Below are positions 35,723-52,083 of a stretch of 52,083 nucleotides of DNA, piece after piece. The stretch lies in assembly GCA_902797995.1 (NCBI GenBank), contig CADBUX010000004.1, positions 1 to 52,083 of the forward strand. Direction: 5' to 3'. The DNA comes from an uncultured Erysipelotrichaceae bacterium (GTDB lineage Bacteria > Bacillota_I > Bacilli_A > RF39 > UBA660). The notes beneath the pieces were generated by a model. That model made no database searches and had not been told where the DNA came from. It worked only from the letters and a program-made list of their open reading frames with translations. The translations under genes were made by a program, and so were the position numbers. Numbering within the stretch: the first letter of the stretch is position 1; every line of letters starts with the position of its first letter.

Positions 35723-35918
35723 AAAAAAAAGAAACATTTCTAAGGACGAAATATTTCCGCGGTACCACCTTAATTCAAAAGCGCTCAACATAATAACGGC
35801 ATAAACCGGGGAATACTCCCTGCATCAAGAAATCATACCAATTAATACCCAGTATTTACTTTCACCAAACGTAAACTCTCTAAAACCAAAAGTATTAATT
35901 TCACTTTCTTTCATCACA
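35723..35918 (-). promoter_or_regulatory. T-box riboswitch leader of metG (AUG specifier)
   Basis: T-box AAGGTGGTACCGCG at 35771-35758, antiterminator 3' strand TTCGTCCTT, AGAGAG..GGTGAAA stem I apex, ATG specifier at 35836-35834, T8 run. Confidence 0.9.
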
Positions 35919-35951
35919 TTTAATGAACTAATATTACCACAAAATTAAAAA

Positions 35952-45148: not shown

Positions 45149-46777
45149 TTATTTTATTTCAACAATATCATTTCCAAAAACACTTTGAGCAGTTTTCAGA
45201 GCCTCTGGAATATCTCCAGTAGATTTCTCATCTATTATAACATTATTTTTAAAACTATGTTCAATATAATTATACTTTTTTCCTTCTTTAATATCAGAAA
45301 CATATTTATCTTTTAGTTTATGCCATTCATCTGTTAAAATAAAAACAATATTATAAGATCTTCCCATAACCAAATTAAATAAAAGTTCAAGTTTAGTAAT
45401 ATTTCTATTACCATTATCAACAATAGAATCATAATCTGCAGAAATTATAACATCCTTTTCACCAACAACCTCCACTGTAGAATCTAAAAAATAAGAGACA
45501 AGAGAAGAAAACTCCTTGTTATGAACATAATCATAAAACCCTTTCCACTTATTAACAATTTCACTTTTCAAATCTTTATTAGCTAATGCAAAAGCATTAT
45601 TTATAATAATATCAAAGTCTTTACGTCTGTTTTTAAACGTTTGTTCATTTTTTAAAACTTTTTCTTCAGACTTATTAACATTTCTTAATTCTTCATTATT
45701 CTCTAAAATTATTTCCCGGGAAATAATTTTAGTATCATTTTTTACTTTCGAATCATCAGATATAGATTTTATAATCTTAAACATCTCAATTTCAAAAAAC
45801 AACATCTGATTAAAAGAATTTCTAAGACCATTAAATATATTACTAACACCATTAACAATCTTTATAAAATCATCAGAAGACAAAGAAATACTATTATCCA
45901 CGCTTAAACTACGAAGATAAGTAAGCAACTGTTCAGTAATAAGTTCTATACTTTTTCCATGATTTACCAATCTTTCTACAGAATCAAAAACACTTTTAGT
46001 ATTACAATTGCAAATATCAACAAAAAGCTCAGAAATAATATTATTATCAACAAGTCCCACAACATCATAAAACAATTGCTTATTTATAACATTAGAATAA
46101 GATAACAATTTATCTAAAAGACCTATTGAATCTCTCATTCCCCCATTACAATAAGAAGCAATAAGTTTCAAAACGTCTTCATCAGCATCAATATTCTCCT
46201 TAGTACAAATATTAGATAAACAATCAACAATATCATCAACACTAATACGCTTAAAATCATAACATTGGCATCTAGAAATTATAGTTTCAGGCACCTTATT
46301 TATTTCAGTAGTAGCTAAAATAAATATTACATGCTTTGGAGGTTCCTCCAAAGTCTTAAGCAAAGCATTAAAAGCACTTGTAGATAACATATGTACTTCA
46401 TCAATAATATATACTTTATATTTAGAAACACTAGGCATCAAAACAACACTATCACGAATAGATCTAATTTCATCAACCCCATTATTTGAAGCAGCGTCTA
46501 TTTCAATAATATCAGGATTACTTCTATCATTTATAAGTTTACAACTATCACATTCATCACAAGGATCAAAACCATTCAATTGAAAACAATTAACAATCTT
46601 AGCAAGCAACTTAGCAACAGTAGTTTTTCCAGTACCTCTAGGACCAGAAAATAAATACGCATGCATAAATCTATTATTAGTAATAGAGTTTTTAACAATT
46701 TTAACAACATACTTTTGGCCATAAATTTCGTCTAGCTTTTTAGGGCGATATTTACGATATAAAGCAACATATTCCAT
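45149..46777 (-). CDS. dnaX: DNA polymerase III gamma/tau subunit
   Basis: ALYRKYRP, GPRGTGKT, EIDAASN, IDEVHML, NALLKTLEEPP, SRC. Confidence 0.97.
   Translation of the reverse strand: MEYVALYRKYRPKKLDEIYGQKYVVKIVKNSITNNRFMHAYLFSGPRGTGKTTVAKLLAKIVNCFQLNGFDPCDECDSCKLINDRSNPDIIEIDAASNNGVDEIRSIRDSVVLMPSVSKYKVYIIDEVHMLSTSAFNALLKTLEEPPKHVIFILATTEINKVPETIISRCQCYDFKRISVDDIVDCLSNICTKENIDADEDVLKLIASYCNGGMRDSIGLLDKLLSYSNVINKQLFYDVVGLVDNNIISELFVDICNCNTKSVFDSVERLVNHGKSIELITEQLLTYLRSLSVDNSISLSSDDFIKIVNGVSNIFNGLRNSFNQMLFFEIEMFKIIKSISDDSKVKNDTKIISREIILENNEELRNVNKSEEKVLKNEQTFKNRRKDFDIIINNAFALANKDLKSEIVNKWKGFYDYVHNKEFSSLVSYFLDSTVEVVGEKDVIISADYDSIVDNGNRNITKLELLFNLVMGRSYNIVFILTDEWHKLKDKYVSDIKEGKKYNYIEHSFKNNVIIDEKSTGDIPEALKTAQSVFGNDIVEIK
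45710..45725. promoter_or_regulatory. Noc-binding-site (NBS) palindrome inside dnaX
   Basis: TATTTCCCGGGAAATA within a perfect 30-bp palindrome at 45703-45732. Confidence 0.78.
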
Positions 46778-46890
46778 ACCATCACACTCCCTTACAAAAT
46801 ATATAAAATATTATAACATAACACAAAATTTAAACAAAGATTTTAACTATTTTTTATTAAAAAAAATCATAATGCTAAAACAAAAAATAA

Positions 46891-46906
46891 TGTTTCACGT
46901 GAAACA
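46891..46906. promoter_or_regulatory. parS site 1
   Basis: TGTTTCACGTGAAACA, perfect. Confidence 0.92.
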
Positions 46907-46970
46907 TCATGAGTAATGGTAAAGAACAAAAAATTTTGCGTTAAAAAACCAAAAAAGTATATTATAAAAT

Positions 46971-46986
46971 TATTTCCCGGGAAATA
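46971..46986. promoter_or_regulatory. NBS palindrome
   Basis: TATTTCCCGGGAAATA within a perfect 32-bp palindrome at 46963-46994. Confidence 0.82.
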
Positions 46987-47105
46987 ATTTTATAGCAAAA
47001 AAACATATTAACAGTTATTCTTTTATGTAAATAACAAGTAAATAAAATTATAATCAATTAACATGTAAAAAAGTAAAATTCACATGTTTTTAGGGATTAA
47101 CACTA

Positions 47106-47121
47106 TGTTTCACGTGAAACA
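47106..47121. promoter_or_regulatory. parS site 2
   Basis: TGTTTCACGTGAAACA within a 28-bp palindrome at 47100-47127. Confidence 0.92.
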
Positions 47122-47157
47122 TAGTGTAATTTTTAAATTATCATTACAAACTCAAAT

Positions 47158-47173
47158 TATTTCCCAGGAAATA
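47158..47173. promoter_or_regulatory. NBS palindrome (1 mismatch)
   Basis: TATTTCCCAGGAAATA with AAAT/ATTT flanks. Confidence 0.75.
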
Positions 47174-47235
47174 ATTTAGAAACAAATACTTATTAACAAT
47201 TAGTATAAAAAATAAATATATTATAAAAGTATATA

Positions 47236-47251
47236 TGTTTCACGTGGAACA
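47236..47251. promoter_or_regulatory. parS site 3
   Basis: TGTTCCACGTGAAACA on the minus strand, abutting the tadA stop codon. Confidence 0.9.
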
Positions 47252-47671
47252 TTAAAGATTCCTCAATTCCTTAAAAAAATCAGAAACTAATGAAAAATAT
47301 TTAGTATCACAATCAATTTTAGTGTATTTAACATTAGAAATATTTTTATCTAAGTTTTCAGAATAATTAGAATTCAACAAATAAAAAACATTTTTTATTC
47401 TTGATTCCCCAATTGCAGCATTACACATCTTGCAAGGTTTTAAAGTTACATACATAGTACAATCATCTAAATGCCATGATTTTAATGATTTACAGGCTTC
47501 AATAATACACAAAATTTCGGCATGATAAACAGAAACATTACTAGTATTTTTTTTATTATGAGAAGAAGCAATAATCTCATTATCTTTAACAATAACAGCG
47601 CCAACAGGAACATTACCTTCATTATAAGCAATTTCAGCTTCTTTAATAGCAATATTCATAAAATCATTCAT
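47252..47671 (-). CDS. tadA: tRNA adenosine(34) deaminase
   Basis: VPVGAVIV, HAE, PCKMC; ATG at 47671 after GGAGG; located upstream of dnaX as in B. subtilis. Confidence 0.85.
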   Translation of the reverse strand: MNDFMNIAIKEAEIAYNEGNVPVGAVIVKDNEIIASSHNKKNTSNVSVYHAEILCIIEACKSLKSWHLDDCTMYVTLKPCKMCNAAIGESRIKNVFYLLNSNYSENLDKNISNVKYTKIDCDTKYFSLVSDFFKELRNL

Positions 47672-47693
47672 AAAATACCTCCATAAGCAATAA

Positions 47694-47709
47694 TGTTTCA
47701 CGTGAAACA
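47694..47709. promoter_or_regulatory. parS site 4
   Basis: TGTTTCACGTGAAACA, perfect. Confidence 0.92.
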
Positions 47710-47737
47710 TATATTCAAAACTCAAAAATTCAAAAAT

Positions 47738-47753
47738 TATTTCCCGGGAAATA
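47738..47753. promoter_or_regulatory. NBS palindrome
   Basis: TATTTCCCGGGAAATA within a 24-bp palindrome at 47734-47757. Confidence 0.82.
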
Positions 47754-47779
47754 ATTTAATAAAAATAATAAATAAAAAA

Positions 47780-47850
47780 GTGCACACACATAGAGGATCT
47801 TAAGGCTGCTATTTTCCAATCCTGACCTGGTTCAACCATATGTGTTGCAC
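47780..47850 (-). ncRNA. ffs: Small bacterial SRP RNA (4.5S type, about 71 nt)
   Basis: Minus strand GTGCAACACATA..CCAGGTCAGG-ATT-GGAA-AAT-AGCAGC..TATGTGTGTGCAC: helix-8 signature, paired ends, followed by T6. Confidence 0.88.
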
Positions 47851-47856
47851 ATAAAA

Positions 47857-47885
47857 ATAATATAATAAATAGTAATCAAAGTCAA
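47857..47885 (-). promoter_or_regulatory. Sigma-A promoter of the SRP RNA
   Basis: TTGACT-17-TATTAT; the predicted +1 falls at 47850, the first base of the RNA stem. Confidence 0.7.
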
Positions 47886-47941
47886 TATATTTTATTTTTA
47901 AAAATTTTAAAAGTATAAAACAAATTAATAATAATTATATA

Positions 47942-47957
47942 TGTTTCACGTGAAACA
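47942..47957. promoter_or_regulatory. parS site 5
   Basis: TGTTTCACGTGAAACA, perfect. Confidence 0.92.
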
Positions 47958-48039
47958 TTAGAAATTGTATTTTTTTGTTTTACTTAGTTATAAAAATAAG
48001 TACTAAATGTATAAACATAACAACATAAATTCAAAAAAA

Positions 48040-48055
48040 TATTTCCCGGGAAATA
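48040..48055. promoter_or_regulatory. NBS palindrome
   Basis: TATTTCCCGGGAAATA within a 30-bp palindrome at 48033-48062. Confidence 0.82.
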
Positions 48056-48099
48056 TTTTTTTAATAAAACAAATATAATTAAAACACTAAAAACAAACA

Positions 48100-48115
48100 T
48101 GTTTCACGTGAAACA
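48100..48115. promoter_or_regulatory. parS site 6
   Basis: TGTTTCACGTGAAACA, perfect. Confidence 0.92.
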
Positions 48116-48252
48116 TAATGAAAAACCCAAATAAAATAAGGATTTGCTACATTATATTCACAATCTTAATAAAGAATTTACTTTAGTTAAAAAAGTTATT
48201 AACAATAATTAATGTTAGTAACTTTCATTATTTTTTATTATTAAAAAAGTAA

Positions 48253-48268
48253 TGTTTCACGTGAAACA
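48253..48268. promoter_or_regulatory. parS site 7, possibly also the gyrBA terminator hairpin
   Basis: TGTTTCACGTGAAACA in a 26-bp palindrome at 48248-48273 that includes the gyrA stop codon, followed by a T-run on the minus strand. Confidence 0.9.
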
Positions 48269-50755
48269 TTACTCATTTATAGATTCTTCAACTACAGTTA
48301 ATTCAGAATTATCACTAGTCTCTTGCTGATCATCTTCCGTAGATTTTTCAGCAACAGTAACCGAAGTAACAACTTGGTTTTCTCTTAAATTCATAAGTCT
48401 AACACCTTGTGTATTTCTTCGCAAAGTAGAAATTTTGCTAACATCAAGTCTAATAATAGTACCTTCGTCTGTAGTAATTATTATATCCTCATCCCCAACA
48501 ACAGATTTAAATGTAACAATTAATCCATTCTTTTCAGTAATATTAAGAGCTTTAACACCCTTACCTCCACGATGAGTCAATCTATACTCTTCTACATCAG
48601 TCTTTTTACCATAACCCTTTTCCGTTACAACAAGTATCAACTGAGACTTATTAACAACTTCAGCTCCAACTACAACTGCATCTAACATATCAATACCTTT
48701 AACACCAGAAGCCGACCTGCCCATTATTCTAACTTCGTTTTCATTAAATCTAACCATTCTACCAATATTAGATGCCATGATTACCTCATTATTACCAGTA
48801 GTCTTTTTAACACTAGTTAACATATCACCATCTTTAAGAGTTATAGCAATCTTACCATTTTTACGAATAGAATCAAATTCAGCTACATCAGTTCTCTTAA
48901 CCAAACCATTTCTAGTAAAGAACATCAAATACTTAGCATCTTCTTCATTAGATATTGGAATAATAGTATTAACAAACTCATCCTTCTCTAAAGGTAAGAT
49001 ATTAACAATTGGAACACCTTTAGATTGTCTACTAAATTCAGGTATTTCATATCCTTTAACACGATATACCTTACCAAAATTACTAAAGAATAGTAAATAA
49101 TCATGAGTATCACAAGTTATTAACATTTCAACATAATCTTCATCGTTAGTAGACATCCCCTTAATACCTACACCACCACGGTTTTGACTGCGATAAGTAT
49201 CAGCGACCAAACGTTTGATATATCCTCTTTTTGTCATTGATATTACGCTTGTTTCGTTAGGAATTAAAGACTCATCATCAATATAGTCAATAGCAGTCAT
49301 ATCAATATCAGTACGTCTTTCATCACCATATTTATTTTTAATTTCAAGAAGTTCTTCTTTAATAATACCAAGAACTCTTTCCTCAGAAGCCAAAATAGCC
49401 TTATATTCAGCAATCTTTTCAAGAAGTTCAGCAAGCTCGTTTTCAATCTTTTCTCGTTCTAAACCAGTTAGTCTTCTAAGACGCATTTCTAAAATAGCAT
49501 TTGCTTGTGCTTCAGTAAGACCAAATCTACTCATTAAACCATTACGAGCAACATCATCATCTTGAGCAGCTCTAATAAGCTTAATTACTTCATCTATATT
49601 ATCAAGAGCAATTTTTAATCCTTCCAAAATATGGACTCTCTTTTCAGCTTTATCTAAGTCAAATTTAGTTCTACGAATGATAATTTCTTTTTGAAAATCA
49701 ATATATTTAGAAATAATATCCTTAAGTCCTAGACTCTTAGGAACACCTTGATCAAGCATTAAAAAGTTTATACCATAATTAGTTTGAAATTGCGTATGTT
49801 TGTATAAATTATTTAAAACGACCTGAGGATTTGCATCCCTTTTCAAAGTAATAGTAATTTTAATACCATCTTTTAAATCTGTATGATAATCGGAAATACC
49901 ATCAATAACCTTATTATGTACAAGTTCAGCAACCTTATTCTTAAGTTCAGATGTATTAACACCATAAGGAACTTCATCAATAACAATATAATTTTTGCCA
50001 TTTTTTTCCTCAATAGTAGCCCTACTTCTTATAGTAATAGACCCCCTACCAGTCTCATAAGCCTTACGAATACCACTATTACCAAGAATAATAGCACCAG
50101 TAGGAAAATCAGGACCCTTAACATAATTCATAAGTTCATCCAAAGTAACATCAGGATTATCAATATAAGCAACGCACCCATCAATAACTTCACTCAAATT
50201 ATGTGGCGGAATATTAGTAGCCATACCAACTGCAATACCCATAGTACCATTAACTAAAATATTAGGAAATCTACTTGGTAAAATACTAGGTTCTTGTTCA
50301 GACTCATCAAAGTTTGGTTCAAAATCAACCGTATTCTTATTAATATCACGTAAAAGTTCTAGTGACATTCTAGATAATCTTGATTCAGTATAACGCATTG
50401 CAGCGGCTCCATAACCTTCAATATTACCAAAGTTACCATGTCCATCTACAAGCATATAACGATAATTAAAATCTTGAGCCATTCTAACCATCGCTTCGTA
50501 AATAGAACTATCACCATGAGGATGATATTTTCCCATAACATCCCCAACTATTCTTGCACTCTTCTTATGAGGTTTATCAGGAGTATAACCAGATTCATAC
50601 ATTGAATAAAGAATTCTACGATGAACAGGTTTAAGTCCATCTCTTAAATCAGGAAGAGCACGAGACACTATAACACTCATCGAATATTCTAGGAACGATG
50701 TTTCAATTTCATTTACTATATTGTTTTCTTCTAATCTATCTCTACTATGATCCAT
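48269..50755 (-). CDS. gyrA: DNA gyrase subunit A
   Basis: [30 protein letters not shown], GyrA-box QNRGGVG, beta-pinwheel repeats. Confidence 0.97.
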
Positions 50756-50766
50756 TTCTAACCCTC

Positions 50767-52083
<1,317 letters not shown>

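Follow-up and report, generated by a model that had tools for sequence, protein, structure and literature searches.

Why would the loading sites of two paralogous partition-type proteins be packed together into one short stretch of a bacterial chromosome, and which proteins would read them there? The question is raised by a contig of 52,083 nucleotides (CADBUX010000004.1, positions 1 to 52,083 of the forward strand; hereafter the window) from assembly GCA_902797995.1 of an uncultured Erysipelotrichaceae bacterium (GTDB lineage Bacteria; Bacillota_I; Bacilli_A; RF39; UBA660), referred to here as genome G000. Between and beside its dnaX and gyrA genes the window carries an array of two palindromes, parS, the loading site of the segregation protein ParB, and the Noc-binding site (NBS), the loading site of its paralogue Noc. 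The 2.6 kb from dnaX to gyrA are probably the one place on the chromosome where two paralogous ParB-family cytidine triphosphate (CTP) clamps load, about 10.8 kb from dnaA and oriC, with Noc limited to the origin domain, as judged from the sites, the genes of their predicted readers and the same region in relatives.

The parS 16-mer (TGTTTCACGTGAAACA) is present seven times in the window, six times exactly and once with one mismatch (47236), and the NBS 16-mer (TATTTCCCGGGAAATA) five times, four exactly and one with a single mismatch (47158), compared with means of 0.00 and 0.03 in dinucleotide-preserving shuffles of the window (n = 100). Both are the canonical sequences of parS and NBS (Table 1). 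A motif scan returns all coordinates of the seven parS and four NBS listed in the original prediction, which had counted ten of these eleven sites as exact where nine are, and whose list of NBS was incomplete, having missed an exact fifth site at 45710 that lies 1.2 kb away in dnaX. Its order of P-N-P-N-P-(deaminase gene)-P-N-(SRP RNA)-P-N-P-P, where P is parS, N is NBS and SRP is the signal recognition particle, is correct, the SRP RNA being matched by its covariance model and the tadA-like gene confirmed by Pfam, and the spacers are unique as had been described, sharing nothing except the sites and short palindromic flanks. The array spans 1.4-2.6 kb, and 11 of its 12 sites are intergenic, placed at the ends and starts of genes.

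Neither motif is dispersed over the chromosome. When the G000 assembly (1,069,625 bases in 38 contigs, 27.3% GC, 95.9% complete) is scanned with up to two mismatches, parS is found eight times, seven in the array and once at C22:18181, and NBS seven times, five in the window, once at C22:18121 and once as a two-mismatch match at C13:31139; every NBS with at most one mismatch lies within window 45710-48055, apart from the copy on contig C22. This C22 pair is an 84/85-nt copy of window 48036-48120 situated at a contig end, where an IS30-like transposase gene (305 aa, with HTH_38 and rve domains) ends 5 nt from the NBS; gene and copy together take up C22:17113-18199 (locus L007:3114-4200). The pair probably stems from a strain variant in which an insertion sequence entered the array, or from an assembly alternative, rather than being a dispersed site. 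Since the scan outside the window yields just this copy and the C13 match, both motifs are confined to the dnaX-gyrA locus, and the NBS at similar density genome-wide that had been set beforehand as evidence against a special array was not found.

The array is close to the origin, and so are the genes of its putative readers. The window's contig ends in 99 nt with which contig C14 begins; C14 continues gyrB and carries recF, dnaN and dnaA (C14:5699-7102, minus strand), and the array is therefore about 10.8 kb from the start of dnaA. Beyond the region upstream of dnaA, C14 encodes rnpA, yidC, jag, mnmE, mnmG, rsmG, a Noc-like protein of 399 aa, parA and parB; the Noc-like gene is thus located between rsmG and parA-parB near oriC, and these last three genes are about 7 kb beyond dnaA.

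ParB (291 aa) has ParB_N and HTH_ParB domains, a ParB_C domain and an N-terminal RALGRGLEELF peptide, and is encoded alongside a ParA of 262 aa; the N-terminal basic peptide of ParB is known for stimulating ParA. The specificity residues of ParB, R173/M179/T184/S201, are of the parS type, while the Noc-like protein carries Q173/K179/T184/R201, the classical Noc combination being QKKR. As reported by Jalal 2020 (PMC7383237), these four positions set the preference for parS or NBS, with Q173 reading adenine 1 and R201 reading cytosine 6, and a single permissive lysine, at either 179 or 184, is sufficient for NBS binding, K or R being present at 179 or 184 in about 91% of NBS-specific variants; among parS-specific variants, R173 is invariant and S201 is allowed. 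QKTR is found at these positions in 118 of 120 close homologues of the Noc-like protein, and QKKR in 112 of 119 classical Nocs. The check on ParB and Noc homologues and their helix-turn-helix residues that the original prediction had proposed thus points to a dedicated paralogue for each motif (RMTS in ParB, QKTR in the Noc-like protein), so that a candidate ParB-family reader of the CCCGGG motif is encoded.

The Noc-like protein contains ParB_N (PF02195, 127 bits) and HTH_ParB (PF17762, 108 bits) domains with the GERRFRA and ENLQR boxes, and scores 296.5 bits with the NCBIfam Noc model TIGR04285, against 247 for ParB; in a six-frame search with this model, its best stretch reaches 276.3 bits. 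Its C-terminal domain matches Noc model positions 181-255, and the closest solved structures are Geobacillus Noc (212 bits) followed by Spo0J (185 bits). A quick maximum-likelihood IQ-TREE search (78 rows, 198 columns), which cannot polarise helix loss or site collapse, places the 69 Q..R proteins in one clade (SH-aLRT 99) and the eight ParB rows in another (95), with long forms (support 82) beside classical Nocs (88) inside the Q..R clade. By its sequence, the Noc-like protein is an orthologue from the Noc clade in which two of the features that define classical Noc are lacking.

In B. subtilis Noc, a 10-residue N-terminal amphipathic helix is required for membrane binding and nucleoid occlusion (PMC8429893). 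In the G000 protein, residue 5 aligns to residue 26 of Geobacillus Noc (7nfu), and the frame upstream of its ATG is open for just 15 codons without an ATG, GTG or TTG start; all 120 close homologues begin MNLEKE[IV]F, and their box I starts at residue 17. In 112 of the 119 classical Nocs, many of which bear the NCBI name 'nucleoid occlusion protein', box I could be placed, at an offset of 27-63 and behind N-termini such as ..FSRFFGLG.. or ..GLFDFLG... The alignment, the short upstream frame and the position of box I in the homologues indicate that the classical amphipathic helix is absent, and the earlier proposal of Noc as a membrane tether accordingly finds no support from the known mechanism in this protein or in 120 of 120 close homologues. 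This long form of Noc is widespread by sequence: the best 150 representatives (50% identity clusters) from a search of 1.84 billion clustered proteins all belong to it and are 242-798 aa in length, box I was found by pattern in 148 of them and at offset 14-21 in 143, and QKx[RK] was read in 122 (the pattern missed the other 28), with QKKR in one.

What the protein has in addition is a linker of about 145 residues (204-348) between its DNA-binding and dimerisation domains, rich in N, E, Q and S and with a net charge of -14. AlphaFold2 gives residues 204-292 a predicted confidence (pLDDT) of about 30, as expected of disorder, with both ends folded. Among homologues of 350-553 aa the linker is hypervariable in both length and sequence, although a hydrophobic motif, NIFD[KR]LR[VI] (NIFDKLRV here), is conserved in 119 of the 120 close homologues; a membrane tether would be conceivable solely via this motif. 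A mimic of the FtsZ C-terminal peptide was considered for it and rejected, as the G000 FtsZ ends EIEIPTFMHRNF and the similarity was judged too weak. A 460-aa open frame on the minus strand of contig C24 encodes a low-complexity protein rich in N, Q and P that has a transmembrane helix at its C-terminus and, in its disordered part, NNIFEGLRDD; this resembles NIFDKLRV and may be due to chance.

The concentration of both motifs in one place is conserved among relatives. Exact NBS are present in 15 of 16 other genomes of the same genus, always as a single cluster save for one contig-start piece in G002, and 120 of the 122 exact sites found genome-wide in these 15 are packed into a single array no longer than 2.9 kb. 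In G013, the sixteenth genome (87% complete), neither a site nor a ParB-family match is present. The Q173/K179/R201 paralogue is found in G000 and in 13 of the 16, and a solitary NBS 1.1-1.3 kb beyond the array, as in dnaX here, in nine of the 15. In other genera of the family, eight of eight have the long paralogue and seven of eight have at least one exact NBS. Two class-level relatives with short Nocs (G028 and G032) have only NBS-like sites with one mismatch, hundreds of kb apart in one and on four contigs in the other; their Nocs carry N-terminal hydrophobic motifs (MASLFNIL.., MGLFDFLG..) and are encoded in an identical rsmG-noc-parA order.

A wider clade was sampled through gyrA, giving 80 loci with GyrA 69-91% identical, from uncultured gut metagenome-assembled genomes titled Bacilli, Tenericutes, 'Mycoplasma sp. 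CAG:877', Candidatus Fimihabitans (placed by NCBI in Mycoplasmatota incertae sedis) and others, a group presumably equivalent to RF39 of GTDB; the 48 with at least 3 kb downstream of gyrA were counted. All 48 have parS downstream of gyrA, and NBS are present as well within 3.5 kb in 35, at 4.7-9.1 kb in eight and nowhere in the locus in five. An apparent class of relatives with NBS only was rejected, as these contain a variant parS, TGTTCCACGTGGAACA. In nine loci of a more distant subgroup (L076, L077, L079, L084, L086, L087, L089, L095 and L098), a solitary NBS occupies a fixed position upstream of gyrB, about 4.7 kb ahead of the gyrA end, and seven of the nine have another 5.6-6.2 kb downstream, so that NBS dot about 11 kb around the parS cluster. 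Site order ranges from strict PNPNPN (L051 and L060) and strictly periodic P-N repeats with 28/48-nt spacing (L055) to blocks such as PPPPPNNNNN; co-location of parS and NBS is conserved, strict alternation is not. Conservation extends into the flanks of the sites: in loci L020-L099 and L126-L141, 231 distinct parS are preceded by A(-1) in 100% of cases and followed by T(+1) in 99%, and 144 distinct NBS are set in an AAA(T)..(A)TTT frame. These conserved flanks make the palindromes 18 nt (parS) and about 24 nt (NBS) in length, longer than the 16-nt consensus.

Starting from the observed sites, their exclusivity, conservation and position, and from the two paralogues with their residues and domain layout, DNA binding, clamp spreading and the action of the linker motif can be pictured as follows. 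ParB would nucleate at the seven parS and serve ParA- and SMC-driven origin segregation as usual, and the Noc orthologue would nucleate at the five NBS between and beside them. Because there is no NBS elsewhere, Noc clamps would be confined to the origin domain, where a clamp spread of 8-10 kb, as reported for S. aureus Noc, would reach oriC. With its N-terminal membrane helix presumably lost and an acidic disordered linker with NIFDKLRV gained, this Noc would mark the origin and centromere instead of covering the nucleoid, and the long linker and its motif may let origin-bound Noc contact the membrane or a partner, by which unsegregated origins could be held or shielded from the division machinery. 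G000 encodes SMC, FtsZ, FtsA (with a C-terminal amphipathic tail) and two DivIVA-domain proteins; a whole-genome search with the NCBIfam MinD model gave no match above its cut-off, the best being ParA (87.9 vs 212.9 bits). A more far-reaching version, which is speculative and rather doubtful as a whole, is that in this large uncultured gut lineage Noc, once a division shield over the whole chromosome, was converted into a factor bound at the centromere that loads only at these NBS, spreads over the origin domain including oriC and tethers or shields origins through a membrane- or partner-binding motif moved from the N-terminus into the linker; such 'origin occlusion' would replace Min and dispersed Noc in 1 Mb genomes, with two paralogous clamps sharing a loading zone after duplication.

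The co-loading idea of the original prediction is borne out in so far as the sites are confined to one origin-proximal spot and each motif has an apparently dedicated paralogue. It had named three observations that would speak against it, namely NBS genome-wide, no conservation in relatives and no paralogue for the CCCGGG motif, and none of these was found. Several results nonetheless weigh against the reading of a two-clamp loading zone. The Noc-like protein, at 296.5 bits, is under the TIGR04285 cut-off of 315, and its predicted specificity derives from four residues mapped in Caulobacter ParB, with T rather than K at position 184. The assembly, with its 38 contigs and 95.9% completeness, leaves room for unassembled sites. 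Five relatives (genomes G046-G050, with loci L029, L064, L070, L027 and L047) have parS-only arrays, a genome-wide NBS scan with up to two mismatches giving two 2-mismatch matches in the five genomes, and all keep a long Q173/K179/R201 paralogue (402-658 aa) unlinked from parB. As these genomes keep the protein without NBS, the two are not strictly coupled and the protein could have another target. Conversely, G002 (94% complete) and G012 (84%) have NBS, and the Noc-like gene was not found in them with the query used.

Alternation, too, is not general. Where a locus has two or more parS and two or more NBS (25 loci), neighbouring sites differ in type 77 times in total, compared with 84.5 expected, and regular alternation as a general rule is rejected for the wider clade. 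Within the genus, adjacent N-N pairs are rarer than expected (1 vs 6.9, reached in 5 of 5000 shuffles), which is not an independent test because the genomes are kin. What relatives keep of the alternating array described in the original prediction is co-location, and regular alternation is a trait of the genus and not of the wider clade.

A membrane or partner role of the linker motif is without direct support. The notion that this motif is a copy of the classical N-terminal helix was rejected after similarity tests of forward against reversed sequences gave null results: for the best 8-mer BLOSUM62 match of 147 linkers to 73 classical N-termini, the forward sequence gives the higher score in 67 linkers and the reversed one in 64 (p = 0.69), and for a position-specific scoring matrix from 27 classical core 8-mers, the 147 linkers divide 69 vs 78 (p = 0.83), with the G000 linker scoring -4.8. 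The strict classical core R[FLI]FG is present in one of the 147 linkers. For a looser pattern, [RK]FF[GNDSM], the linkers of other members show a strong directional preference (59 vs 2 for its reverse); as the pattern was widened post hoc, after the linkers had been seen, its tie to the membrane helix is a resemblance only.

Among other explanations, the one that survives best, while still unlikely, is that NBS and perhaps parS are mainly operators, with the Noc-like clamp acting as a KorB-like, CTP-dependent regulator of dnaX, the deaminase gene, the SRP RNA and gyrBA. The intergenic placement of all sites but one would suit operators, as would the parS 22 nt upstream of the deaminase start, those adjoining the gyrA and deaminase stop codons and the two that form terminator-like hairpins with T-runs (0.2 expected), and the ParB-family protein KorB is reported to silence promoters (PMC13768133). 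However, the remaining site, a conserved NBS, is inside the dnaX coding sequence, and promoter-like matches in the region number 14 compared with 15.9 in shuffles. In relatives, moreover, the number, order and spacing of sites vary freely while the genes stay constant, which does not suggest fixed operators.

A single dual-specificity protein, either ParB with its S201 or the Noc-like protein, could also read both motifs and turn the array into a larger zone for one clamp, as the original prediction had offered as an option. This is improbable, although ParB is R/M/T/S, dual-specificity variants mostly have T or S at 201, and R173 is permitted in NBS binders as reported in the study of specificity residues (PMC7383237); the presence of NBS in G002 and G012, in which the query used found no Noc-like gene, would agree with it. 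The same source permits S201 in parS-specific variants too (PMC7383237), and relatives with G201 in ParB (RMNG, RLTG) still carry NBS arrays. The 16-mers are sharply distinct, with 120 of 122 genus-wide matches to a degenerate pattern being exact parS or NBS within arrays, and the dedicated Q173/K179/R201 paralogue recurs through the genus. With two paralogues of distinct specificity residues present, a single reader becomes unnecessary.

It is least probable of all, and hardly to be expected, that the NBS are leftovers or neutral hitch-hikers in parS-NBS modules amplified by tandem duplication, the Noc-like protein being independent of them, since the periodic repeats of L055, L051 and L060 and the five relatives that keep the protein without NBS are set against unique spacers in G000, which indicate no recent duplication in its array, exact GC-rich-core 16-mers that persist at 27% GC across species of such GyrA divergence, NBS flanks conserved beyond the 16-mer in 144 distinct sites and a solitary NBS beyond the array that recurs in nine of 15 genomes of the genus. 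All three explanations fit the conservation pattern less well than a two-clamp loading zone.

The array is bounded by dnaX and gyrA, and the genes for the tadA-like deaminase and the small SRP RNA interrupt it (Table 1). Two parS palindromes, at window 48247-48274 and 47100-47127, extend to 12-pair hairpins with T-runs (two vs 0.2 expected), and the parS at 48253 may double as the gyrA terminator because its hairpin and T-run sit right after the gyrA stop codon; the palindromes as plain terminators were rejected, with a T-run at two of the 12 sites only. Elsewhere in the window, a T-box leader is found at 35739-35923 on the minus strand (94.9 bits, gathering score 93).

Table 1. Genes and clamp-loading sites of the dnaX-gyrA locus, in window coordinates.
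Feature	Position	Strand	Remarks
dnaX (clamp-loader tau/gamma subunit)	45149..46777	-	flanking gene; Pfam DNA_pol3_delta2, 162 bits
NBS	45710..45725	.	exact; inside dnaX reading frame, encoding ..IISREII..
parS	46891..46906	.	exact; dnaX start 114 nt downstream
NBS	46971..46986	.	exact; part of 24-nt palindrome AAATTATTTCCCGGGAAATAATTT
parS	47106..47121	.	exact; centre of 28-nt hairpin followed by T-run (terminator-like)
NBS	47158..47173	.	1 mismatch, CCCAGG core
parS	47236..47251	.	1 mismatch; directly adjoins deaminase gene stop codon
tadA-like tRNA adenosine deaminase gene	47252..47671	-	within array; 139 aa from ATG behind GGAGG; Pfam
parS	47694..47709	.	exact; 22 nt upstream of deaminase start codon
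NBS	47738..47753	.	exact
Small SRP RNA gene	47764..47861	-	within array; RF00169, 61.1 bits, gathering score 40
parS	47942..47957	.	exact
NBS	48040..48055	.	exact; in C22 contig variant, IS30-like element joined 5 nt to the left
parS	48100..48115	.	exact
parS	48253..48268	.	exact; directly adjoins gyrA stop codon; minus-strand hairpin and T-run (terminator-like)
gyrA	48269..50755	-	flanking gene; Pfam
gyrB	50767-52083		after gyrA, continues into contig C14; Pfam

Textbooks present Noc as a duplicate of ParB with three acquisitions, namely a new DNA motif, a membrane helix and sites distributed over the whole chromosome. In this locus the same motif and the same protein clade follow the opposite site logic, with all sites at the centromere, which raises the questions of how two sliding clamps loading 30-250 bp apart would share DNA, whether the division and replication roles of Noc could work from the origin alone and how, once duplication had separated ParB from Noc, membrane targeting evolved together with the distribution of sites. 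If the proposal is true, this is a natural case of two paralogous CTP clamps with a common loading zone after gene duplication, and the array is short enough to be cloned in one piece. Literature searches, which covered texts without supplementary tables, returned the known work on B. subtilis and S. aureus, in which neither interleaved parS and NBS nor NBS confined to the origin nor a long Noc without the helix is described, in agreement with the earlier statement that no such architecture had been described.

The nearest known system is that of Noc and NBS in B. subtilis and S. aureus, which shares with G000 the identical 16-bp NBS, the protein clade, the rsmG-noc-parA-parB order, the ParB_N and HTH_ParB domains with the GERRxR and ENLQR boxes, and Q173/K179/R201. 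In S. aureus, 41 Noc-site loci are reported to be scattered over the origin-proximal part of the chromosome (PMC5540599), B. subtilis NBS are reported to cover the origin-proximal two-thirds (PMC5540599, PMC7383237) and classical NBS are described as widely spread except near ter (PMC7383237). Classical sites thus cover the origin-proximal half to two-thirds of the chromosome, whereas here all NBS are within 2.6 kb and mixed with parS, and classical Noc has the N-terminal amphipathic helix and K184, whereas the G000 protein has T184, no such helix and a disordered linker with a motif of its own. Chromosomal ParABS centromeres are alike in their consensus parS near oriC, in ParA and ParB encoded beside oriC, in SMC and in the N-terminal basic peptide of ParB; their parS are spread over the origin region, whereas here they are gathered in one array of at most 2.9 kb, which also includes sites of another family, predicted to load another paralogous clamp. 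In sporulating B. subtilis, the DNA-binding protein RacA, with its origin-concentrated ram sites and its partner DivIVA, anchors the region around the origin at a landmark of the cell. RacA does not belong to the ParB-family CTP clamps, and the likeness is in the proposed sense of origin-proximal sites and origin fastening, the anchoring in G000 being conjectural. KorB is likewise a ParB-family clamp that loads at a palindrome near promoters, but it is plasmid-borne and reported to work with a clamp-locking partner (PMC13768133), whereas such a partner or a regulatory role would be conjectural for the G000 Noc-like protein. The parts of the system are known from these cases; their arrangement and the build of the Noc-like protein are new.

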